Shown here one piece after another: positions 7,053-42,692 of a stretch of 64,000 nucleotides of DNA. This DNA is from an uncultured Gammaproteobacteria bacterium (GTDB taxonomy: Bacteria; Patescibacteriota; Microgenomatia; JALYQM01): the NCBI GenBank assembly GCA_964403585.1, contig CAYOFQ010000001.1, positions 896,680 to 960,679 of the forward strand. Reading direction: 5' to 3'. The position numbers and the translations under genes are program-made. The notes beneath the pieces were generated by a model. It had not been told where the DNA came from. It made no database searches and saw nothing but the letters and a program-made list of their open reading frames with translations. The stretch's first letter is position 1, and every line of letters begins with the position of its first letter.

Positions 7053-7529
7053 CTACTTTTTCAAATAGGAGTCCAGATTGCGTAATAATTCCTTACTGTT
7101 CACAAAGTTCGTGATATCCTCACGCAGGAAGCGTTTTTTCCCTTTAAAATCCTTGTAATGTATCTCAAACCACTCCTGGTGCCCCCCAAGTGGAAAAAGC
7201 TGGCGGATAGTTCCGCCCCACACCACCCGATGCCCGTCAACCGCATAGGATTTATACGCCACAATCCGGGAAAAGGGGATTTCAAACGTACGAAAAGCCG
7301 AAACAACGACCAAAGAATCTGCGGAAAGAACTATCTTCGACTTAACTAACTTCAAAACCAGATATAAGTTAAACCAGAACCAGACAACCAAAACCGCAGC
7401 CAGTACTACCCATTTTTCCGAGAAAGCCGACATCAAAACAATTAATGCCATGCCAAACATAAAAATTGAGGTGGGGAAAAAGAGGAAGTAGACCAAATAA
7501 AGCCACTTTGTATACTTATATTCAATCAT
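7053..7529 (-). CDS. hypothetical membrane protein (two N-terminal TM helices + PH-like C-terminal domain)
   Basis: 158 aa; two hydrophobic helices followed by a soluble ~90-aa domain. Confidence 0.4.
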   Translation of the reverse strand: MIEYKYTKWLYLVYFLFFPTSIFMFGMALIVLMSAFSEKWVVLAAVLVVWFWFNLYLVLKLVKSKIVLSADSLVVVSAFRTFEIPFSRIVAYKSYAVDGHRVVWGGTIRQLFPLGGHQEWFEIHYKDFKGKKRFLREDITNFVNSKELLRNLDSYLKK

Positions 7530-7614
7530 ACCAGTATAGTAATTGATTTATACCTTCGTTTACAATATAATCGTAAAAGCTGAAAACAGTTGCCATAGTA
7601 TAACACACGCATAT

Positions 7615-7688
7615 GGCCCCGTCGTCTAGCGGCCTAGGACGCCAGGTTTTCATCCTGGAGATCAGGGGTTCGATTCCCCTCGGGGCTA
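7615..7688 (+). tRNA. tRNA-Glu (anticodon UUC)
   Basis: GGCCCCGTCGTCTAGCGGCCTAGGACGCCAGGTTTTCATCCTGGAGATCAGGGGTTCGATTCCCCTCGGGGCTA; anticodon stem CCAGG/CCTGG, loop TTTTCAT (TTC); T-arm GGTTCGATTCC; CCA not encoded. Confidence 0.8.
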
Positions 7689-8142
7689 CAAAAAGCCTTA
7701 AACCTGTAATTCCGGATATACACTACACGTAGAATTGTGATTCTTTTTAGCTATCTTCAGGGGATCTTTACCCCAGTGTTTCATAACACTAATACTATTA
7801 GCGACACTAACCTGCACTGCACCGTGCGTACTTTTAACAGTCTCCAGGCACTGACCTAATGAATCAAGTTCTGCCTTTCGCTCAGTACATTTTAGGTGTG
7901 CATCGGGAGGGTCTGCTGCATATTTTTCAGCAAGTTCGCGTGTGTTTTTCGCACTCTCAACATACTATAGCTAAGGAAACCAAAAAACTTAAAACGACTA
8001 AAAAGATAATGAGAAAGTGCCAGTTACGAAATGAATCCAAACAGGAGTGAGTATGTGTTTTACGTCTTGCCATAATCACCATAAATATAGAATATGAGCA
8101 CTCCATCTAGCAACTTTATAAAAGTCTGCTTATACTAAAAGT

Positions 8143-8814
8143 ATGTATCCCGAAACCAGACAATCAATTATCACGCCTAAATTACTGATAATTATGGGCA
8201 TATTGGTTATTGCCATTACATTAGGATTAACGTATGGAGCGCAGTACATTTCCGATACTGTCGGTACCGGTGATTTTGATGAAAGCGGCGAAGAACTACC
8301 TCCGGGAACATCCGTAGAGGTGTCCTATGACACCGTGACCTATGAGTCGGAAGAACAGCGTTTTAGCGTTGACTATCCAAAAGAATACAAAGTTGCCGAG
8401 TTACCGAAAAAATATTATCAAAAAACAAAGCGATTCTTTGAAGGACAAACAATCTTTGCTTCAGATAAACGAACTAATGACCCCAATTATTTTCGGATGA
8501 CCATTAATTTCCAGCGCAATTACCAGGACACAACCGATCGAAACGAGATGCTTTCCAACATGCTCTCAGTAAACCGGTTCTGTAAAAAAGGTAACCTGAA
8601 AACACTTAAAGAGGGACGAGAAATAATTAACGACATAACCTATGTTGTTCGGACAGATGCAAAAGGATGTGACGCTCAATATACTACGTATTACGACACG
8701 ATTACCTGGCCGGGAACATATGTGATCGAAATCCGAACCAATCAGCCGTACGCTAAAGTGCGGGCCTATTCTGACCGGGTTCTCAAAAACCTTGCTCTGG
8801 ATTACACACCGTAA
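8143..8814 (+). CDS. hypothetical membrane-anchored protein
   Basis: 223 aa; single N-terminal TM (LLIIMGILVIAITLGLTYG) then soluble domain. Confidence 0.45.
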   Translation: MYPETRQSIITPKLLIIMGILVIAITLGLTYGAQYISDTVGTGDFDESGEELPPGTSVEVSYDTVTYESEEQRFSVDYPKEYKVAELPKKYYQKTKRFFEGQTIFASDKRTNDPNYFRMTINFQRNYQDTTDRNEMLSNMLSVNRFCKKGNLKTLKEGREIINDITYVVRTDAKGCDAQYTTYYDTITWPGTYVIEIRTNQPYAKVRAYSDRVLKNLALDYTP

Positions 8815-15779: not shown

Positions 15780-16472
15780 ATGCATATAAGTATTATCGTT
15801 CCTGCTAAAAACGAATCCCAAAATATTAGTAATTTATTCACCCGAATACACACCGCCTGCAGTACGGCAGGACTACCGTATACTATCATTTTTATTAACG
15901 ACGGCTCAACCGATACAACTGCAGACATTCTGAAACAAATCGGTTCTGATTACCCACTAACTATAATTACGCACGAACAAAGCCGGGGCAAAGCAAACTC
16001 GATTCTGGAGGGTGTCGAAGCTGCGCAAACAGATTTTGTCGTGATGATCGATGCCGACCTTCAGTACCCGCCTGAAGCTATTCCTGGAATGGTACAAAAA
16101 ACCCCTGAAGTCCAAATAGTAGTAGCAAGAAGAACAATCAATAATGAAAAAATAGTTCGAAAAGCACTCAGCAAAATTCATGCTTACCTTTTTGGACACC
16201 TTCTATTTGGACTTGACTGTGATATTCAATCGGGACTCAAACTATTGCCGCGGGAGTTAGTAACTCATTTAGACAGATCGAATATCACTGCCTGGACACT
16301 GGATTTATCACTACTTCATACTGCCAAACAGCTCGAATATAAAATAGGAGAGGTACCCATTACTTTTACCGAACGATCCGCAGGGCAATCAAAAGTGAAT
16401 ATCTTCCGATCGATATATGAACACACCTACACAGCCCTGAAGATTAAGTTCTTCAGCAAAAAAATAGTATAA
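15780..16472 (+). CDS. family 2 glycosyltransferase (DPM1-like)
   Basis: 230 aa; ISIIVPAKNE...IIFINDGSTDTT...DAD motif typical GT2 polyprenyl-phosphate sugar transferase. Confidence 0.8.
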   Translation: MHISIIVPAKNESQNISNLFTRIHTACSTAGLPYTIIFINDGSTDTTADILKQIGSDYPLTIITHEQSRGKANSILEGVEAAQTDFVVMIDADLQYPPEAIPGMVQKTPEVQIVVARRTINNEKIVRKALSKIHAYLFGHLLFGLDCDIQSGLKLLPRELVTHLDRSNITAWTLDLSLLHTAKQLEYKIGEVPITFTERSAGQSKVNIFRSIYEHTYTALKIKFFSKKIV

Positions 16473-16481
16473 TGAAAATCT

Positions 16482-16889
16482 ATGAACTACTTTCTCGCTA
16501 AAACCGATCCTGAAACGTATTCCATCACTGATCTGGAAAAAGATAAACAAACGACCTGGGACGGAGTCCGTAATCCCCAGGCAGTAATTTTCTTGAAACA
16601 GATGCAACCGAAGGATAAAGTACTCATTTACCATTCTCAAGGCGAATCCGCCATCGTCGGCCTCGCCGAAGTTGTCGGTAATTCCCGACCAGATCCCAAA
16701 GACACTCGCAGCTGGCTCGTGGATTTTAAGTTCGTTAAGAAGTTTAAAGAACCATACGTAACCTTACAGCAAATTAAAGAATCGGGTAAATTCGACGATT
16801 TTCGCCTGGTTCGCCAGGGGAGATTATCCACTATGGATGTCCCGGAAAAATTTATCGAGTATCTCAAGAAATGCGGCGTTGCACTGTAA
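16482..16889 (+). CDS. EVE (PUA-like) domain protein
   Basis: 135 aa; MNYFLAKTDPETYSITDLEKD...VLIYHSQGESAIVGLAEVVG matches EVE/thymocyte nuclear protein fold. Confidence 0.7.
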   Translation: MNYFLAKTDPETYSITDLEKDKQTTWDGVRNPQAVIFLKQMQPKDKVLIYHSQGESAIVGLAEVVGNSRPDPKDTRSWLVDFKFVKKFKEPYVTLQQIKESGKFDDFRLVRQGRLSTMDVPEKFIEYLKKCGVAL

Positions 16890-34391: not shown

Positions 34392-35936
34392 TTAATTACT
34401 TAAAATTTGTTCTAACCAGATATTCGAAAAGAGCATTTCCGGATCCTGTTCTTTCTTCAATTTAATAAAATCATCCCACCCCGGATACATATTCCTAACC
34501 ACTTCGTGATCCAAATAAGAACCGTAACATAAATAATAGGAACTATCTAATTGGAGGAGTGTTTTCCCAAGTTCTTTAGTAAAAGAGGCTAGATTATGCT
34601 GAGATTCATCAGCCGTGCTCAGGGAATAATAGGCAACGATACCATATCGATCTACAGGTACATAGGACAGTGTCGAAAGGGTCTCAGCCGGAACTTTACG
34701 AACAGTAACATTTATCAAATTTAGTTTATAGTTCTTAACCAGTGATTTATATGCATCAAGAAATGCGTAAAATTTATCCGGCGGAACAAAATATTCCTGC
34801 AACACATCTGTATGCTGCGGGTCGCTATGTTCAAGAAACGAAACTGAGGCAGCCATCGCTTCATTTCGCTGAATTTGTTTTTTTTCAATGAGTGGAGTAA
34901 TCTCAGACTCCATCATCCACCTGAATTTTTTACCAAAATCATGCAACTTAGAAAATTCAATAACACTTTTTCGAACCCACTTTGAAGAATTCCCTGAAAG
35001 ATCAGGATCAGAAACAATCGGCGACATCGACCTTTCCCGATACTCATACACTAAAGATTTTTCAAACATCATTTCAGAATCTATATTCAAATGTGCTTCA
35101 TACATTCCAATCGCAGGATCATTGCTCCGCTTTTCCAGCTCATTCAATAACTCCAAGGTCGGGTATTCCTGGAGCTTAAAAGAATAAGTTGAGTTAGGTA
35201 CGGTGATCAAATTAATCTCGGAAATATAGCCAAACACCCCGTATCCACCAACAACAGCATTGAACAAATCTGATTTTTGAGTTCGCGAAAGCTGCACCTC
35301 TTCACCGGTAGCGGTAATAATTTTAAGATAATTAATGGTCTCAACAAGCGGACCAAAGTGCGGGTCTTTACCGTGTGCATTTACACTAACCGAACCTCCA
35401 ACAGTGAAAATATTAGAGTCCTGCATGACAGCGACAGCACGATTATGTTTATTCAATACTGTTTGAACTTGTTTCCAGGTCGCACCAGGCTGGACAGTAA
35501 CTGAACTGTCACTATCATTGTATTCCACTGCATCCATTTTAAGCGTAGAAATATGCAGTGAGTCACGTAATAGAATCTGTCCTCCCATACTATGCCGAAC
35601 TCCGGAAAATGAAACTTTTTTTCCAAGCTTTCTGGCATAATCGATAATCTGAATAACTTCTGTAGAAGAAACCGGTTGATACAGCCCGCTTACTTCACTA
35701 CTGTTAAGCCAACTAGCATCAGTCAACGTTGTCGATCCAAGCGCAGGGTAGGGAAGTACTTTAGGCAAAACCGGCGCAATGGTTAATTTATGGTTATCAG
35801 GATAACTCTGAAACAGGTCAGTCAAAATCCAGCGCCTAGTTTTATCCAACCACAGTGTTGATATGGTTATTAGAGCTACACAAGCGAGAAAAGCGAATAA
35901 ATAGCTCCAATTAATAATTCTTCGTCGTTTTAGCAT
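34392..35936 (-). CDS. FAD-linked oxidase (FAD_binding_4 / PCMH-type) membrane-anchored
   Basis: 514 aa; N-terminal TM; FAD-binding segment VSFSGVRHSMGGQ and VGGYGVFGYI typical of vanillyl-alcohol-oxidase/DprE1/ALO-like flavoenzymes. Confidence 0.65.
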   Translation of the reverse strand: MLKRRRIINWSYLFAFLACVALITISTLWLDKTRRWILTDLFQSYPDNHKLTIAPVLPKVLPYPALGSTTLTDASWLNSSEVSGLYQPVSSTEVIQIIDYARKLGKKVSFSGVRHSMGGQILLRDSLHISTLKMDAVEYNDSDSSVTVQPGATWKQVQTVLNKHNRAVAVMQDSNIFTVGGSVSVNAHGKDPHFGPLVETINYLKIITATGEEVQLSRTQKSDLFNAVVGGYGVFGYISEINLITVPNSTYSFKLQEYPTLELLNELEKRSNDPAIGMYEAHLNIDSEMMFEKSLVYEYRERSMSPIVSDPDLSGNSSKWVRKSVIEFSKLHDFGKKFRWMMESEITPLIEKKQIQRNEAMAASVSFLEHSDPQHTDVLQEYFVPPDKFYAFLDAYKSLVKNYKLNLINVTVRKVPAETLSTLSYVPVDRYGIVAYYSLSTADESQHNLASFTKELGKTLLQLDSSYYLCYGSYLDHEVVRNMYPGWDDFIKLKKEQDPEMLFSNIWLEQILSN

Positions 35937-36027: not shown

Positions 36028-36642
36028 ATGAAAAAACTAGTTATCGCCAGCCAAAACGCAGCCAAAATAAAAGAGTTCGCCGAATTCTTATCGGATCTTC
36101 CTCTTGAAATTGTTTCTCTCACGGATCTTGCTATTACTGATGACGTCGAAGAAGACGGTGAGACATACGAAGCTAACTCTCAAAAAAAAGCTTTGTTTTA
36201 CGCTCATAAGAGTGGACTCCCCGCCATATCCGATGATGGCGGTCTGGAGATTGCGGCACTTAACGGGGAACCGGGCGTAAAAACAAAACGGTGGTTGGGG
36301 TATGAAGCAACTCAAGAAGAATTAATGAATAATATGCGAAAAGTAGCACTCGCGCTTCCCGAAAATAATCGCCAGGCGCAATTCAGAACCGTTGTTACCG
36401 TTGCACTGCCTGATGGCAGATTCTGGAGTGTGGAAGGTAAGTCAGTCGGTATAATTGCCAGAGAACCCTACAAGAATGCACTGAACGGGTATCCCTACCG
36501 TGCATTTTTCTTCCTTCCCGATATAAATAAATACCACCACAAAGATGAATTAACTGCTGAAGAACAAAAGAAATATAATCACCGTCTTATTGCAATAGAA
36601 AAACTCAAGGGAGTAATAGCTAAGGAAATTATCCCCGAATAG
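36028..36642 (+). CDS. rdgB: non-canonical purine NTP pyrophosphatase (Ham1/RdgB ITPase)
   Basis: 204 aa; MKKLVIASQNAAKIKEF...ETYEANSQKKA...ISDDGGLEIAALNGEPGVKTKRW matches Ham1 family motifs. Confidence 0.8.
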   Translation: MKKLVIASQNAAKIKEFAEFLSDLPLEIVSLTDLAITDDVEEDGETYEANSQKKALFYAHKSGLPAISDDGGLEIAALNGEPGVKTKRWLGYEATQEELMNNMRKVALALPENNRQAQFRTVVTVALPDGRFWSVEGKSVGIIAREPYKNALNGYPYRAFFFLPDINKYHHKDELTAEEQKKYNHRLIAIEKLKGVIAKEIIPE

Positions 36643-37432
36643 CACAGACACGAACTTCTCTCGTATTGTTATCGCCGTCAAAAACTATATGAGTATAACC
36701 CCGTGCTTCGAGCTGTGCCCGCATTTGCTCAACAGTGAATGTTGCCTTAGGCGCAGAGACAGCCGAAGGATTGACGGTTTGATCATTAAGGAAATCAAAA
36801 AGTACTACACCACCTGGTCGGACTATTCTCGACATTTCATCAAGGAACGTTCCACTTAGTTCGGAGCCAACATGAGAGACGACAATCCCTCTACTTATAG
36901 CATAATCAACTGAACTGTCAGGTAAAGGAATACTTGTCGCTGATGCAGGTAGGGTAACGGCATCGGGATATTTTCCTGCTGCAATAGCAAGCATTTCAGG
37001 GGCTATGTCGAGCAAATATAACCGACTTACCTTCCCGGCAAGTGGTCGTGTTGCTTCTGCAGTACCGCAACCAATATCAATACCCGTTCCTGCCTGGGCT
37101 AAGGAGCCAAAAACATCGCCGGCGAATTTATTAAATCTCGCGTAAGTCGCAGCCGTGTAGTGATCAGAGCGTTTAATTTGCTGATCCCATGTGGCAGCTC
37201 TTGAGCCCCACCGAGCGGCTAATGAAGCCAATGATTCAGTAGTAGAAATTCCTTCAACAATAGGCCGGATACTTGGTGCCTGATCAGCCTGCGCACTGCC
37301 TGTCTCGGAAGTAGTAATGTTTTCTTTTGTCGCCATAGATGTCGGGGATAGTATCATTGTAATTTCTAAAAAGCAATGGCTTAATATCCTTGATTTTTCT
37401 AAACAGTTTGATATACTCGCCCAATTGTACAA
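36629..37432 (-). CDS. class I SAM-dependent methyltransferase (start uncertain)
   Basis: Motif I GIDIGCGTAEATRP, post-I acidic LLDIA, motif RPGGVVLFD. Alternative starts MILSP (37357) and MATKEN (37336); none has a clear RBS. Confidence 0.6.
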   Translation of the reverse strand: MYNWASISNCLEKSRILSHCFLEITMILSPTSMATKENITTSETGSAQADQAPSIRPIVEGISTTESLASLAARWGSRAATWDQQIKRSDHYTAATYARFNKFAGDVFGSLAQAGTGIDIGCGTAEATRPLAGKVSRLYLLDIAPEMLAIAAGKYPDAVTLPASATSIPLPDSSVDYAISRGIVVSHVGSELSGTFLDEMSRIVRPGGVVLFDFLNDQTVNPSAVSAPKATFTVEQMRAQLEARGYTHIVFDGDNNTREVRVCAIRG

Positions 37433-37467
37433 TCAATAGCTGGAGTATCAGCGGAATTCGAACTAGC

Positions 37468-38121
37468 ATGAAAATCGACCGAAATATTATAGCAGTGCTC
37501 GGGATTAATGGCGTAGGCAAGACGACCATCATTAACAATGCACTTGCATATGCTCCGGAAGGAAGTGTCGCCTTTAATGCTGCTGATTTAATGCTTGCTT
37601 ACCTAGGGCTGGAAAGCAGAAGTCAGCTTGAACAAGTCCCCTCAGCTATTAAAGAGGAAGCTCGCCGGGACTCCATTCTGCATATGGCAAGACAATATGC
37701 GGATCGTCCACTGGTTTTCCTCGACACCCATATGCAAATTGGAATAGGCAAGGGTACGGAACGTACAAAACATGTGACATGGGCACCGGAATTTAACCTC
37801 ATTATTGCGAAAGGAATTTTTATCCACGGCTGCACTGACGACATCCAAATGAGAAGGTCTCAGCGACCAGGGGGTGGCCGGAGCCTGGATCCAATGACAA
37901 TTCAGGCTGATCAGGCTGAAGAACTGCAATTATTCGAGGCTATGGTTTCAGGCGAAGTACCAACTTCCCGTATTTTTAATCCTCAGGATCAACTTGATAC
38001 TACCGTTGCCTTATTTTTAGCCGAACTGGGCATTAGCAGATTCCGCAGGGTAGAAAGTCAGCAAATTCTCCCGGTATCTCTTGAATCACAACATACTCCA
38101 AGATACGGAAAGGAATTCTAA
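37468..38121 (+). CDS. archaeal-type adenylate-kinase-like P-loop NMP kinase
   Basis: From ATG 37468 (ORF track over-extends to 37390). IAVLGINGVGKTT Walker A, LDTHMQIGIGKGT and IHGCTDDIQMRRSQRPGGGRSLD segments align with archaeal AdkA (VDTHSTV...; [22 protein letters not shown]). Confidence 0.5.
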   Translation: MKIDRNIIAVLGINGVGKTTIINNALAYAPEGSVAFNAADLMLAYLGLESRSQLEQVPSAIKEEARRDSILHMARQYADRPLVFLDTHMQIGIGKGTERTKHVTWAPEFNLIIAKGIFIHGCTDDIQMRRSQRPGGGRSLDPMTIQADQAEELQLFEAMVSGEVPTSRIFNPQDQLDTTVALFLAELGISRFRRVESQQILPVSLESQHTPRYGKEF

Positions 38122-38127
38122 ATTCAT

Positions 38128-38523
38128 ATGAAAACGATCGACAAATTGAGTTTCGTAACTATCAAGGACCGTAAAGTTTTATTTGTTTTAGAGAAAAATA
38201 ATACGATCTGGTATACCCCGGGTGGTAAGCGCGAAGAAGGTGAACTTGATCATGAAACCTTACTGCGCGAGACTAAAGAGGAACTAAATATCGATTTGGT
38301 TCCCGAATCCATTTCTCACATACATACGATAACCGTTGAGTCAGTCGATAAACCTGACGTGATGGTAAATCTTATCTGCTACACCGCAGAATATTCGGGA
38401 GAAATAAACCCTCAAAATGAAATTGAAAAAGTTGCCTATCTTACACATAGTGACACCCACCTTGTAGCACAAGGCGGGAATTTACTGCTTCAGTATTTAA
38501 AACAAAACAATCTTATTGATTAG
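38128..38523 (+). CDS. Nudix hydrolase
   Basis: 131 aa; Nudix box GGKREEGELDHETLLRETKEELNI (Gx5Ex7REUxEExGU). Confidence 0.7.
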   Translation: MKTIDKLSFVTIKDRKVLFVLEKNNTIWYTPGGKREEGELDHETLLRETKEELNIDLVPESISHIHTITVESVDKPDVMVNLICYTAEYSGEINPQNEIEKVAYLTHSDTHLVAQGGNLLLQYLKQNNLID

Positions 38524-38551
38524 TATTATTATTTTTTTATAGGAGAAATAT

Positions 38552-39289
38552 ATGAAAGTATATTTAGATAATTTTGGGTATCAAGTACATGGAGAGACTA
38601 TCGGTGAGATGTGGCTCTCATTGGTTGATGCAGTTATCTCACATGGCACCCATAGTTTAGACGAGGACCGCGACCGGATAGCCCTGCAAAATATTCGGGT
38701 CCGATCGTCACAACAGAACTTTGATGATCCAATCATCGCAAAGTACGGGAAAAAAGAAAATGTTGACGCAATCATCAATTTAACCTTTCAGGAAGCAAAA
38801 ATGACCGACATCGACATCAAGCCAAGCTTTAGCCCAGGAGCTAAAAGTTATTTCCAGCGCATTGTTGAAGGTCGAATGGTAGAGTTTGTGATTAAGCGGT
38901 TAAGCATGATTCCTGAAAGCAAAAAAGCGGTTATTGTCTTTCCTACATACGAAGACTACGAGGCAGTGCTGAAGACTCCAAAAGATGACTACTTACCATG
39001 TATTGTATCTATTCAGTTTAGACTGATGCCGGTTGAGAATGGTGCATATGTTCTTGATACCACATTCTATGCACGCTCACTTGATATTTTCCAAAAAGGG
39101 TACGGAAATTTTGTGGCTATCACATTGCTCTCAAAAAATATCGCCCAGGAAATATCTAAAAACCTGGGAGTTCCTGTTACCTTAGGCTTTCTCGACGGGC
39201 TTATTGCTGACGCTCATGTTTACGGTGAATTAACTACTAAAGCAGAAGAAACTTTGACACAGGCTAAAACCGACGGCGATTTAAAATAA
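38552..39289 (+). CDS. divergent thymidylate-synthase-fold enzyme (ThyA / dUMP-hydroxymethylase family)
   Basis: 245 aa. Aligns by eye to ThyA landmarks: DRDRIALQNIRVRS ~ DRTGTGTLSIFGHQMRF; ESKKAVIVFPT ~ DSRRIIVSAWN; catalytic-Cys region DYLPCIVSIQF ~ LAPCHAFFQF (His replaced by Ile); RSLDIFQKGYGNF ~ RSCDVFLGLPFNI (Asn kept, so uracil specificity); ADAHVY ~ GDTHLY. Confidence 0.55.
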   Translation: MKVYLDNFGYQVHGETIGEMWLSLVDAVISHGTHSLDEDRDRIALQNIRVRSSQQNFDDPIIAKYGKKENVDAIINLTFQEAKMTDIDIKPSFSPGAKSYFQRIVEGRMVEFVIKRLSMIPESKKAVIVFPTYEDYEAVLKTPKDDYLPCIVSIQFRLMPVENGAYVLDTTFYARSLDIFQKGYGNFVAITLLSKNIAQEISKNLGVPVTLGFLDGLIADAHVYGELTTKAEETLTQAKTDGDLK

Positions 39290-39376
39290 ATCAGAATCTG
39301 TACACTATCACGATATCTGTTACAAATTACTATAATGAGGCTTCTTTGCAAGCCTCATTATAGTATAAATAATTAG

Positions 39377-39952
39377 CTATTTATCCAGACTACATTGGCC
39401 AGTATGCCACGCACTAGGATTTACTGCATATAGTGTGCACCATAATTCCTTAGCCGTCTGAGTGTATAAGGTCGGAAAAATCTTAGCCTTCCTAAACTCA
39501 TACCAATTCTCTTTGAAACTATTACCCTGACTAGATTGTTCCATTATCTCCAAATCTACATCCAAACTATCCGCATCTCTTACAATTTTGGCTTCTTTCG
39601 ATTCCCTTTGTTCAAATTCAACCCATAATGCAAACAGTTCTGCCTGGAATACTGTGTCCGACAGAATATCTTGTAATGCACTATTATCGTTTCTGTTCGT
39701 GTAATACCTGGCAACATAATGGCAATCTCCGGTTCGAACTTCGGGCACGTCATGAATAAGAGCCATCTTCATAAGCTTTTCTGTATTTACTTTCTCCTCA
39801 TAGCTTGCTAGCGTTAAGGCTATCCATAACACTCGTAGCGTATGCTCACTAACATTGGCAACATGTGGAGCAAGAAATTGTCGCCAGGTACGCTGCACCA
39901 GACGTAAAGTTCCTATTTCATAGAGAAATACCGCATTTCTTTTGTAATTCAT
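39377..39952 (-). CDS. HD-domain 5'-deoxynucleotidase (YfbR-like)
   Basis: 191 aa; RTWRQ...NVSEHTLRV...ALIHDVPEVRTGD HD motif pattern typical of YfbR/HDDC2. Confidence 0.7.
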   Translation of the reverse strand: MNYKRNAVFLYEIGTLRLVQRTWRQFLAPHVANVSEHTLRVLWIALTLASYEEKVNTEKLMKMALIHDVPEVRTGDCHYVARYYTNRNDNSALQDILSDTVFQAELFALWVEFEQRESKEAKIVRDADSLDVDLEIMEQSSQGNSFKENWYEFRKAKIFPTLYTQTAKELWCTLYAVNPSAWHTGQCSLDK

Positions 39953-40053
39953 TAGTTACTTTGTAGTACAAATAACAGGAATAAAAAAGTCGAGACAACT
40001 TTAGTCGAGAAGAGTCGACTGGAATTTGAATAGAAATAAGATAATATAGGGGC

Positions 40054-40761
40054 ATGAAACATCCACATCCTACACAAATGGGGATTCTGAAGAAGTTAGT
40101 CTTTGCCGAGTCACTCAGGTATACGGAATTAAAACCCACCGAGGACCTGGAAAATAACACATTCGATTTCCATCTCGACCAATTAATAGCACAAAAATTT
40201 ATCGTTAAACACGACGGCAAGTACAAACTTACCAACATAGGCAAGGAATACGCAGGAAGAATGGATACCGAAAAAGCGCTTATAACCAACCAGGCAAAGG
40301 TATCAGTGCTTCTTTTTGCAACCAAGGAGATTAACGGCGAATTGTATTATCTTATTTACACCCGACTAAAACAACCGTTTTACGGCGCTCAAGGTCTCAT
40401 TTCCGGGAAGGTCGGGTGGGGAGAGAAAATAATTGACGCCGCCGAACGCGAACTGTTTGAAGAGTCAGGATTAGTAGGCAAAGCAGAAATTGCAGGGATG
40501 AGACACTACATGGTAAAAAACGAAAATACCACTGAACTACTAGATGACAAAATGATGTTTTTTTGTATTTTCCGTAATCCGCGTGGGGAAATAGTCGCAG
40601 GAGACGAGGGTCGCTATGAGTGGGTAGCGCAAAGTAAAATAAATTCGTTCATTACAAAACCTATAGAAGATGATTTGGATATTTTGTTTGATAACCTGAA
40701 CAAATACAATGGTACGAACCTTTTTATAGAAGAATTTGAACATGTTACAGATAAATTCTAA
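40054..40761 (+). CDS. winged-helix-Nudix fusion protein
   Basis: 235 aa; N-terminal ~70 aa wHTH-like (GILKKLVFAESLRYTEL), C-terminal Nudix box GKVGWGEKIIDAAERELFEESGL. Confidence 0.65.
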   Translation: MKHPHPTQMGILKKLVFAESLRYTELKPTEDLENNTFDFHLDQLIAQKFIVKHDGKYKLTNIGKEYAGRMDTEKALITNQAKVSVLLFATKEINGELYYLIYTRLKQPFYGAQGLISGKVGWGEKIIDAAERELFEESGLVGKAEIAGMRHYMVKNENTTELLDDKMMFFCIFRNPRGEIVAGDEGRYEWVAQSKINSFITKPIEDDLDILFDNLNKYNGTNLFIEEFEHVTDKF

Positions 40762-41878: not shown

Positions 41879-42268
41879 ATGTCCCGTCAGTCAGCCAAAT
41901 ATATAGTTATTACTCTGTTACGCTGGTCAATTATTCTCCCGACAGCTATTACCGTCTCGGTTACATTCTTATATTGGCTTATTTATCAGCCAACAGGGTG
42001 GGGAGTCCTAACAATCTTCCTGATAGCATACTACACAGTGCTATTAAGCGGTATCATCTGTAATGCCGTTGTTTTACGACATATTTACAACCACCTTCAG
42101 AGCAAATACCCCCAACTCGTCTATAATGCCGGAAAATACTATTTTATCCTGCTTTTTGGATATTTCTGCCTCATACCGCTACTCGGATTCGGAGTACTTG
42201 CGTTATTTACCATAGCTAACCCTATAATTATTATACTTTCCATTATTCTGGCAGAATTCGTCCATTAG
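41879..42268 (+). CDS. hypothetical 4-TM membrane protein (tandem paralog A)
   Basis: 129 aa; shares TM topology and spaced motifs with the next gene. Confidence 0.45.
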   Translation: MSRQSAKYIVITLLRWSIILPTAITVSVTFLYWLIYQPTGWGVLTIFLIAYYTVLLSGIICNAVVLRHIYNHLQSKYPQLVYNAGKYYFILLFGYFCLIPLLGFGVLALFTIANPIIIILSIILAEFVH

Positions 42269-42275
42269 GAGCTCT

Positions 42276-42692
42276 ATGAACAAAAAGGATTGGGACAACC
42301 AAATTTTAAAAGTACTAGTCAAATGGTGCTTCTTCTACCCGCTGGGAGCAGCTGTTACTGTCGCGGCGCTCCTGACGCTGGCCGGCGGACATTTCGACGG
42401 GTGGGCGCTGGTGGGGGCAATTTTCATCGGTTATTACGCATTATTGGTACTGGGAACCGTCGGCAACCTCAACGCGGTAGGCAAAACTTACACCATTCTC
42501 GAACAACAGGAGCCCAAAATCCTTAATAAAGTTGTCCTGTACTATTGCCTGATCATGGGTACCTATTTGTGCTTACTTCCATTCATGATCAGCATTTGGT
42601 TCCTCGGGTTTCTGATTATTAACCCCGGAACTATCCTGTTATCCATCACCATAGCTACGCTCATTGAACCTAAAAAGAAAAACGGACGGTAA
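42276..42692 (+). CDS. hypothetical 4-TM membrane protein (tandem paralog B)
   Basis: 138 aa; paralog of 41879-42268; N-terminal half (42300-42530) is conspicuously GC-rich. Confidence 0.45.
   Translation: MNKKDWDNQILKVLVKWCFFYPLGAAVTVAALLTLAGGHFDGWALVGAIFIGYYALLVLGTVGNLNAVGKTYTILEQQEPKILNKVVLYYCLIMGTYLCLLPFMISIWFLGFLIINPGTILLSITIATLIEPKKKNGR

Follow-up and report, generated by a model that had tools for sequence, protein, structure and literature searches.

A thymidylate-synthase-centred pyrimidine-nucleotide module, apparently conserved in Patescibacteria and DPANN archaea

The locus and its recurrent four-gene core

Positions 36028-40761 of contig stretch CAYOFQ010000001.1 (896,680 to 960,679), a 64-kb window from a genome that GTDB places in the Microgenomatia, carry seven genes that a first-pass annotation had described as a nucleotide-metabolism island. 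The window is the whole stretch of DNA that was analysed (64,000 nt). At the centre of the seven lies a compact, divergent enzyme with the thymidylate synthase (TS) fold, here called ThyAL. Together with a P-loop nucleoside monophosphate (NMP) kinase, a Nudix hydrolase (Nudix1) and a class I S-adenosylmethionine (SAM) methyltransferase of a subfamily that we term RW-MTase, it forms an evolutionarily supported four-gene unit, whose association recurs across two domains of life. This core is the window's copy of an apparently undescribed module recurring in Patescibacteria and DPANN archaea.

The kinase (37468..38121, + strand, 217 amino acids (aa); AdkA profile matches), Nudix1 (38128..38523, +, 131 aa; NUDIX 1.5e-10) and ThyAL (38552..39289, +, 245 aa; Thymidylat_synt 3e-7, uracil/folate-type signature) lie in this order with 6 and 28 nt between them, which indicates that they are co-transcribed as an operon. 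RW-MTase (36629..37336, - strand, 235 aa; Methyltransf_11 5.6e-17) and the kinase diverge across a 131-bp intergenic region (37337..37467), in which promoter-like hexamers occur at 37390-37417 (+) and 37451-37424 (-), as consensus matches only. The open reading frame (ORF) of RW-MTase, 36629-37432, can be extended to a TTG start at 37432, and that of the kinase spans 37390-38121; public gene calls start the two genes at 37336 (235 aa) and 37468 (217 aa), respectively.

For comparison, gene calls were made at about 100 loci that contain a ThyAL homologue, and the genes were assigned to families with hidden Markov models (HMMs) whose seeds came from the window and from neighbours that recur. Dereplication at 90% ThyAL identity gave 71 groups, in which partners were counted within 5 kb, while per-locus counts, which are not dereplicated, cover 83 loci. 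Compared loci are designated by L-numbers and compared proteins by P-numbers. Of the 71 groups, 56 have a gene of the nucleoside triphosphate (NTP) pyrophosphatase type (Ham1, CYTH or Nudix, which are unrelated folds), 45 have a QueC-like PP-loop ATPase, usually as the next gene and often with overlapping stop and start codons, and 30 have the window's kinase family (33 of the 83 loci). Nudix-family genes were present near ThyAL in 36 of the 83 loci. The typical order is ThyAL, then QueC-like, then Ham1, CYTH or Nudix, and finally the kinase. Neighbours of the nucleotide-glycosidase type comprised NDT-like genes (10 groups) and SLOG genes (TIGR00725; 6 groups), and the commonest Pfam families among 149 other neighbours were Thymidylate_kin (5), HD (5) and NDK (3). 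A canonical kinase for deoxythymidine monophosphate (dTMP), Tmk, replaces the window-type kinase in L035, L036, L026 and L018. In the first three it directly follows ThyAL, and that of L035 passes TIGR00041 (91 bits against 83).

Several of these proteins also occur as fusions: ThyAL~Nudix (P0132), TS-like~Nudix (P0182), TS-like~Ham1 (P0189), TS-like~RW-methyltransferase (P0180), QueC-like~Ham1 (L014), Ham1~RW-methyltransferase (L066/67/75/77/78) and SLOG~RW-methyltransferase (P0282). Such fusions indicate that the proteins of the module work together. Recurrent synteny and fusions thus bear out the logic that had been proposed from the window alone, in which an NTP pyrophosphatase acts before C5 modification of an NMP and an NMP kinase after it.

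The closest relatives preserve less of the arrangement. In L081, whose ThyAL is 80% identical to that of the window, the Nudix gene is still directly upstream of thyAL and a fragment of the kinase gene lies past an IS110 insertion; nothing else of the cluster is retained there. In L097 (ThyAL 71% identical), Ham1 is directly upstream of ThyAL. A pyrophosphatase-type gene directly upstream of ThyAL is thus common to both. A metagenome scan with the single ThyAL protein yielded no more than one additional close relative, located on a contig of 1.2 kb, so that synteny among close relatives rests on L081 and L097. The region L081:1644-6972 contains an IS110-family transposase and a 445-aa ORF between the kinase fragment and the Nudix-ThyAL pair, and the neighbouring UvrB and pyruvate kinase genes are fragmented.

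The kinase had been called archaeal-AdkA-like, and this holds at the level of the family. The single sequence matches PRK04040 (archaeal adenylate kinase) weakly (9e-7, 28.5 bits against a cut-off of 155), and a homology search with it returned only itself. A profile of its 27-member family matches the solved archaeal adenylate kinases 6ln3, 1ki9 and 1nks over the full length (1.6e-16 to 3.9e-13). As judged from these scores, the kinase is a relative of AdkA, not an equivalog. The Nudix protein encoded directly upstream of ThyAL in L081 is an orthologue of Nudix1 with 57% identity, and the ThyAL-fused Nudix domain of P0132 can be aligned with Nudix1 from one end to the other (30% identity, 8e-12). 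RW-MTase carries the motifs RWxxRAxxW and SRG[IV]V[IV]S. It is orthologous to the methyltransferase domain of the TS-like fusion P0180 (32% identity, 4e-40, with the motifs common to both), to those of the five Ham1~methyltransferase fusions and to that of the SLOG fusion P0282, and homologues at 41-46% identity sit in TS-like-(SLOG)-MTase-Ham1 operons. PDB sequence searches with RW-MTase and the Nudix protein gave generic matches only. An AlphaFold2 model of RW-MTase searched with Foldseek likewise retrieved only generic class I methyltransferases (DhpI, Trm9, Bud23, UbiG), which offer no clue to the substrate.

The remaining three genes at the locus are of a different kind. Ham1, an RdgB-type non-canonical NTP pyrophosphatase (36028..36642, +, 204 aa; Ham1p_like 2.8e-40), overlaps RW-MTase tail to tail by 14 nt. 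It is 36% identical to Escherichia coli RdgB, 15-22% identical to ThyAL-linked Ham1 proteins and 24-32% identical to RW-MTase-linked ones. It reaches 149.8 bits with the NCBIfam XTP/dITP diphosphatase model (cut-off 234) and 109.6 with a second model (cut-off 145), and the base-contact motif GFGYDP is altered to NGYPYR. From its sequence, this protein appears to be an ordinary RdgB-type neighbour and not an orthologue of the cluster-type Ham1. The HD phosphohydrolase of the YfbR-like 5'-deoxynucleotidase family (39377..39952, -, 191 aa; HD_3 3.2e-26, YfbR-like 1.4e-13; 43.8 bits with PRK03826, cut-off 122) is convergent with ThyAL, 87 nt beyond that gene. HD genes were found near ThyAL in 4 loci with the window-seeded HMM, and Pfam HD detected 5 more neighbours; the gene is absent from the closest relative, L081, and can be regarded as a loosely associated neighbour. 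Divergent from it is a winged-helix and Nudix fusion, wHTH-Nudix (40054..40761, +, 235 aa; NUDIX 2.3e-9, DUF7347 6.4e-7, HTH_45 8.8e-4), whose translation reads an intact Nudix box, GKVGWGEKIIDAAERELFEESGL. This fusion was present in 1 of the 83 loci, the window itself, and is possibly a ligand-sensing regulator or a hydrolase.

All seven ORFs exist as annotated, and Pfam and NCBIfam HMM searches returned the same domain assignments for all seven proteins. The notion of seven genes forming one conserved island was rejected, given that Ham1, HD and wHTH-Nudix are not kept beside ThyAL in relatives: comparative genomics links RW-MTase, kinase, Nudix1 and ThyAL, and the other three, which have no conserved linkage to them, are ordinary genes of pool sanitation or regulation. 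Their inconstancy could also be taken to mean that, in a compact genome, independent housekeeping genes of the nucleotide pool (RdgB, a MutT-like Nudix, a YfbR-like HD, a generic methyltransferase and a kinase) happen to lie beside the organism's TS and share no pathway. The housekeeping surroundings, the unremarkable base composition and the fact that the genes belong to no known defence system agree with this. We consider it improbable, since the association of RW-MTase, kinase, Nudix and ThyAL recurs in two domains of life with the backing of gene fusions, and since the gaps of 6 and 28 nt speak for co-transcription. Coincidence applies to Ham1, HD and wHTH-Nudix, not to the four-gene core.

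Flanking genes are housekeeping ones (YchF, rpsF-ssb-rpsR, a release factor and proteases), with YchF starting 20 nt downstream of wHTH-Nudix and followed by rpsF-ssb-rpsR. Directly past YchF, at 41879-42692, are two tandem paralogous ORFs for small membrane proteins (129 and 138 aa). The gene immediately upstream of Ham1 (34392-35936, -) encodes a FAD_binding_4 protein of 514 aa, whose C-terminus is like that of ALO (D-arabinono-1,4-lactone oxidase). The Rfam scan of the window detected no riboswitch (e.g. tetrahydrofolate or preQ1). Within the 64 kb there is no thyA, thyX, tmk, dut or folA, nor any gene for a QueC-like protein, SLOG, NDT glycosidase or ThiD-type kinase. PADLOC assigned no gene to a defence system: RW-MTase and Nudix gave domain-level matches only (to mad2 and PDC-S07, respectively), and ThyAL, kinase, Ham1, HD and wHTH-Nudix gave none. 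Further away, a GT2 glycosyltransferase gene (15780-16472) is directly followed by a 135-aa EVE/PUA-like ORF (16482-16889), flanked by GHMP-kinase and ROK-family genes. A link between this pair and the nucleotide genes had been suggested and was rejected, as the two gene sets are 20 kb apart with unrelated housekeeping genes between them.

Fold, family and active site of ThyAL

With the Pfam profile Thymidylat_synt (PF00303), ThyAL scores 30.3 bits, which exceeds the gathering threshold (24.3). Its TS alpha/beta fold is confirmed, and MilA is among its top structural neighbours. The best full-length HMM is that of the methanogen-type TS, TIGR03283, which aligns residues 12-226 with model positions 3-195 of 201 (37 bits against 174). 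A PDB search with the single sequence found no TS, and a profile of 72 sequences reached the solved TS sequences at a best E-value of 0.004 (Enterococcus TS). When ThyAL was compared by hhalign with E. coli ThyA, only residues 105-245 aligned, with a probability of 69%. In the N-terminal half of ThyA, folate is bound through E58, W80 and W83, and the phosphate-binding residues are R21, R126' and R127'. Candidate equivalents of these residues in ThyAL are R40/R42 and Y100, from inspection only.

The catalytic half is far better conserved. Among the 72 nearest relatives, C150 (in DYLPC), R175-S176-x-D178, N186, D220-x-H222-x-Y224 and P121-E-S-K-K-A126 are invariant. The hhalign alignment places them on C146, R166-S167-x-D169, N177, H207/Y209 and P-D-S-R126-R127 of the E. 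coli enzyme, with N186 located 11 residues past R175, the same spacing as in E. coli, and Lys124-Lys125 standing where E. coli has R126'/R127'. By alignment, Tyr147 (three residues before Cys150) would take the L143 position, an assignment that the adjacent Asp145 and Asp146 make uncertain.

Three residue rules have been derived from phage TS homologues in a 2026 study (PMC13326640). At N177, Asn reads deoxyuridine monophosphate (dUMP) and Asp deoxycytidine monophosphate (dCMP); at L143, a bulky hydrophobic residue leads to a methyl product and Asp or Glu to a hydroxymethyl product; at D169, Asp marks a folate enzyme and Asn a flavin-dependent 5-hydroxy-dCMP synthase. Applied to Asn186, Asp178 and Tyr147, these rules predict that ThyAL acts on dUMP with a cofactor of the folate type and yields a methyl product. 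By these residues, the signature of the window ThyAL is that of a thymidylate synthase and not of a hydroxymethylase.

The family is tight, with about four full-length representatives left after clustering at 50% identity. Most of its carriers belong to the Patescibacteria or the DPANN archaea; the others are a small number of metagenome-assembled genomes (MAGs) of Proteobacteria, Acidobacteria, Desulfobacteraceae and Omnitrophota. A scan of viral contigs (IMG/VR) with the family alignment retrieved no relatives. Public annotation lists the members as 'thymidylate synthase' or 'hypothetical protein'. In the searchable literature we found no paper on the family, on its QueC-like/Ham1/Nudix/kinase neighbourhood or on its variants, and the literature searched on TS in Patescibacteria or Saccharibacteria held nothing specific. 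Two proteins of the wider clade, P0184 and P0207, are distant TS-like domains with a C-terminal PterinBD-DUF4346 fusion, which hints at pterin cofactors there.

The residues at the D169 and N177 positions divide the 71 groups into three variants: D..N (51 groups, including the window), D..D (19 groups) and N..D (1 group). The D..D, or cytosine-type, variant includes all Saccharibacteria-type loci, human-associated ones among them, and a more distant tier of short TS-like proteins (~205-215 aa) is also D..D. The N..D variant, which has the signature of 5-hydroxy-dCMP synthases, was found only in L090 and protein P0132. A Ham1, CYTH or Nudix gene lies within 5 kb in 40 of the 51 D..N groups and the kinase family in 23, and canonical Tmk (6 loci) and Ndk (4 loci) are neighbours of the D..N type only.

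The human-associated Saccharibacteria loci (L051-L065, L072, L102-L105; e.g. L051:7983-10600) have a TGT gene on the minus strand beside D..D ThyAL, which is followed by QueC-like, Nudix, a protein labelled 'c5' and acetate kinase. The 'c5' protein (118-160 aa) has no Pfam or NCBIfam match. In these ThyAL proteins, the stretch with Asp at the N177 position reads RSWDGFQKGAGD. If the residue rules hold, these cytosine-type enzymes would make a modified dCMP, not dTMP. L074:7274-9328 has two TS-fold enzymes in one operon, since its D..D ThyAL and kinase genes are directly preceded by a short TS-like gene of the cytosine type (212 aa).

Putative tailoring enzymes and the predicted route

The divergent QueC-like family was found in L009:8720-9598, L015:1412-2290 and about 60 other loci, usually immediately downstream of ThyAL. 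It comprises subtypes of ~290 aa and ~250 aa, and the solved proteins closest to it are Cap9, QueC and QatC. A conversion of U to C at C4 by these proteins was considered and rejected, because they accompany uracil-type and cytosine-type ThyAL alike. QueC-like and RW-MTase genes co-occur in none of the 71 groups. Their mutual exclusivity and their parallel fusions to Ham1 suggest that they are alternatives for tailoring a single site; this might be an oxygen atom of the ring or of the C5 substituent.

Other loci combine the TS fold with SLOG proteins. In L090:3321-5656, the N..D ThyAL is followed by a SLOG~methyltransferase fusion, Nudix and a second methyltransferase. L091:4784-7275, L093:1-2412 and L095:3559-5423 carry a short cytosine-type TS-like gene (~205-213 aa), SLOG, RW-MTase and Ham1, in an operon layout that resembles the bacimethrin pathway; SLOG is missing from the L095/96 operons, and TrmB-type regulators flank L091. 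In five MAG loci of Proteobacteria, Holophagaceae and Desulfobacteraceae (L002, L003, L005, L007 and L013; ~7350-8720 in each), the beginning of a D..N ThyAL gene, whose product is 53-56% identical to that of the window, is overlapped by a SLOG/TIGR00725 gene, and the pair adjoins genes for an AMP-binding enzyme, a thioesterase and a pyridoxal-phosphate-dependent decarboxylase, so that the whole looks like a small biosynthetic gene cluster.

The reading of the window that we favour, and give about an even chance, is that the module would be a non-orthologous counterpart of Dut-ThyA-Tmk, taking deoxyuridine triphosphate (dUTP) through dUMP and dTMP to the diphosphate, dTDP. Every substrate, cofactor and product in this route is a prediction, drawn from the observed fold, residue signature, operon structure, recurrent synteny and fusions. 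Nudix1 would cleave dUTP, or another pyrimidine deoxynucleoside triphosphate (dNTP), to the monophosphate, a role that may fall to Ham1 or CYTH elsewhere. As its active-site residues suggest, ThyAL would then attack C6 of dUMP through the thiol of Cys150 and convert the nucleotide to dTMP by passing a one-carbon unit to C5, with a methylene-pterin or a folate as the donor. The AdkA-like kinase would phosphorylate the product to the diphosphate, since a true Tmk holds its position in other loci. RW-MTase may perform a further step outside the dTMP route.

Several observations weigh against this reading. ThyAL misses every TS equivalog of NCBIfam, with 17-37 bits against cut-offs of 108-327, and its residues 1-104, corresponding to the N-terminal half that binds folate in ThyA, cannot be aligned to the E. 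coli enzyme. Across 185,579 species representatives, the two near-invariant motifs of the family turned up at no more than 85 loci, which makes it an accessory and patchy family. Genes for dihydrofolate reductase (DHFR), serine hydroxymethyltransferase (SHMT), dUTPase and dCMP deaminase were found near none of the compared loci, and the searchable literature holds no biochemical data for any member. ThyAL genes of Proteobacteria and Acidobacteria MAGs whose products are 55-56% identical to that of the window overlap a SLOG gene beside AMP-binding and thioesterase genes, and in those genomes probably do not encode the housekeeping TS. Finally, the dTMP pathway leaves RW-MTase unexplained, and the QueC-like ATPases of other loci likewise. 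Outside the window, RW-MTase accompanies only D..D or N..D TS-like enzymes, often together with the SLOG N-glycosidase, and the window is the sole D..N locus that has it.

As RW-MTase otherwise travels only with cytosine-type or 5-hydroxy-dCMP-type variants, a non-canonical pyrimidine product is still conceivable. In that case ThyAL would add a C5 group to UMP or dUMP, and RW-MTase would methylate the base or the substituent, e.g. the O of a C5 hydroxymethyl group or O2/O4. The kinase would return the product to the pool of di- or triphosphates for incorporation into DNA or RNA, and Nudix and Ham1 would remove the competing canonical triphosphate, a cellular version of the T4/SPO1 logic. The fusions of RW-MTase to a TS-like protein (P0180) and to Ham1 point this way, as do its 41-46% homologues in operons with TS-like and Ham1 genes, the three active-site variants, including the dCMP-type one of Saccharibacteria and N..D, and the separation of QueC-like and RW-MTase expected of alternative tailoring enzymes. 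We nevertheless hold this to be rather unlikely for the window. Its Asn186/Asp178/Tyr147 signature is that of a plain TS, for which canonical dTMP is the simplest product, and the fold search with RW-MTase gave generic class I neighbours only. Moreover, the family is absent from the viral contigs scanned, the cluster contains no glycosyltransferase, aminotransferase-like or DNA-level tailoring gene, and the searched literature reports no modified pyrimidine in Patescibacteria DNA.

Taken more broadly, the variants may belong to a mobile, cell-encoded toolkit for C5-modified pyrimidines in Patescibacteria and DPANN, and occasionally in other bacteria, a proposal that we make tentatively. It would consist of a TS-fold enzyme (D..N, D..D or N..D), an AdkA-like kinase, a Ham1, CYTH or Nudix pyrophosphatase and a tailoring enzyme, QueC-like or RW-MTase, and would be transferred horizontally. 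Its product could be a methylated thymidylate-like nucleotide, and not plain dTMP, in the window and 5-methyl- or 5-hydroxymethyl-dCMP in Saccharibacteria.

A free modified pyrimidine base or metabolite, such as an antivitamin or a signalling compound made in the manner of bacimethrin or mildiomycin, with a TS-like NMP C5-hydroxymethylase, an N-glycosidase and a SAM O-methyltransferase, appears a doubtful product for the window. In the bacimethrin pathway, a TS-like enzyme is followed by a glycosidase and then by a methyltransferase (PMC12345177), and elsewhere in our dataset a TS-like gene forms operons with a SLOG/LOG-type N-glycosidase and RW-MTase (L090, L091 and L093), with the last two also fused (P0282). 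Upstream of ThyAL, 10 loci have an NDT-like gene (MilB/BcmB superfamily), and in 5 loci the SLOG and ThyAL genes overlap. The window, however, has neither a SLOG or NDT glycosidase nor a ThiD-type kinase, its NMP kinase argues that the product stays a nucleotide, and its ThyAL is of the uracil type, whereas bacimethrin and mildiomycin require the cytosine type.

The first-pass observation is confirmed and its interpretation partly supported. It had left the choice between dTMP supply and a pathway akin to phage DNA hypermodification. Of the two, dTMP supply is favoured by a signature of TS and not of hydroxymethylase, and a hypermodification-like reading is kept alive by RW-MTase and the cytosine-type sister variants.

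Significance and comparison with known systems

Ultra-small symbionts such as Patescibacteria and DPANN depend on salvaged nucleotides. Little is known of the ways in which their dNTP pools are supplied and policed. The locus exposes a TS-centred pyrimidine-nucleotide module that belongs to a conserved system of both groups, supported by fusions and apparently uncharacterised, in which the steps from dUTP to dTMP and dTDP would be rebuilt from unrelated or archaeal-type parts, with two unexplained tailoring enzymes. The ThyAL family displays the same residue switches that separate dTMP, modified-dCMP and hydroxy-dCMP synthesis in phages. It thereby offers new TS-fold chemistries and a direct, testable approach to the question of whether some cells pre-modify pyrimidines at the nucleotide level, and it may represent a drug-like vulnerability in human-associated Saccharibacteria. 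Should the toolkit exist, it would imply modification of genomic DNA at the level of the nucleotide pool in cells, or new antimetabolites in episymbiosis. Should ThyAL prove to be a thymidylate synthase and nothing more, it would nevertheless constitute an uncharacterised and structurally minimal lineage of TS.

Among known systems, those of bacimethrin and mildiomycin (BcmA/MilA CMP hydroxymethylase, BcmB/MilB N-glycosidase, BcmC SAM methyltransferase) share with the window the combination of a TS-like enzyme and a SAM methyltransferase, which an NMP N-glycosidase joins in related loci. RW-MTase is likened to BcmC by enzyme type only. The glycosidase of the related loci is of the SLOG/LOG type, not the NDT type, and is absent from the window, whose TS-fold enzyme is uracil-type and whose kinase is an NMP kinase instead of ThiD. 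The flavin-dependent 5-hydroxy-dCMP synthases of phages RB69, DLP3 and HY126 (PDB 9iqc, 9iqu) are more remote: the window ThyAL has Asp178 and Asn186 in place of their D169N and N177D signature, and identity is 14-16%. The methanogen-type TS of TIGR03283 is similarly short and supplies the best full-length HMM match, but the score is far below its cut-off, and the window ThyAL is not a member of that family.

In its overall working, the module would be similar to the T4 set of gp56 dCTPase/dUTPase, gp42 dCMP hydroxymethylase and gp1 deoxynucleoside monophosphate kinase, and to the route to 5-hydroxymethyldeoxyuridine in SPO1. It differs from these in its cellular context, in the lack of viral homologues in our scan and in the other folds of its kinase and pyrophosphatase. 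The signature of a gp42-type hydroxymethylase is also not that of the window enzyme, which has Asn186 and not Asp, and Tyr147 and not Asp or Glu at the water-admitting L143 position.

The closest parallel is Dut-ThyA-Tmk itself. Its proteins are all non-orthologous to those of the module or very divergent from them, with Nudix (elsewhere Ham1 or CYTH) standing for Dut and the AdkA-like kinase for Tmk, and the module differs further in having no linkage to DHFR or SHMT and in its additional RW-MTase or, elsewhere, QueC-like ATPase. Both systems would nonetheless proceed from a triphosphate to a monophosphate, through Cys-dependent one-carbon transfer to C5 by a TS-fold enzyme, and on to re-phosphorylation, and true Tmk and Ndk are found inside the module at some loci. 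With ThyA (EC 2.1.1.45), the window ThyAL has in common the Cys, the RS.D motif, the uracil-reading Asn and the His/Tyr pair.

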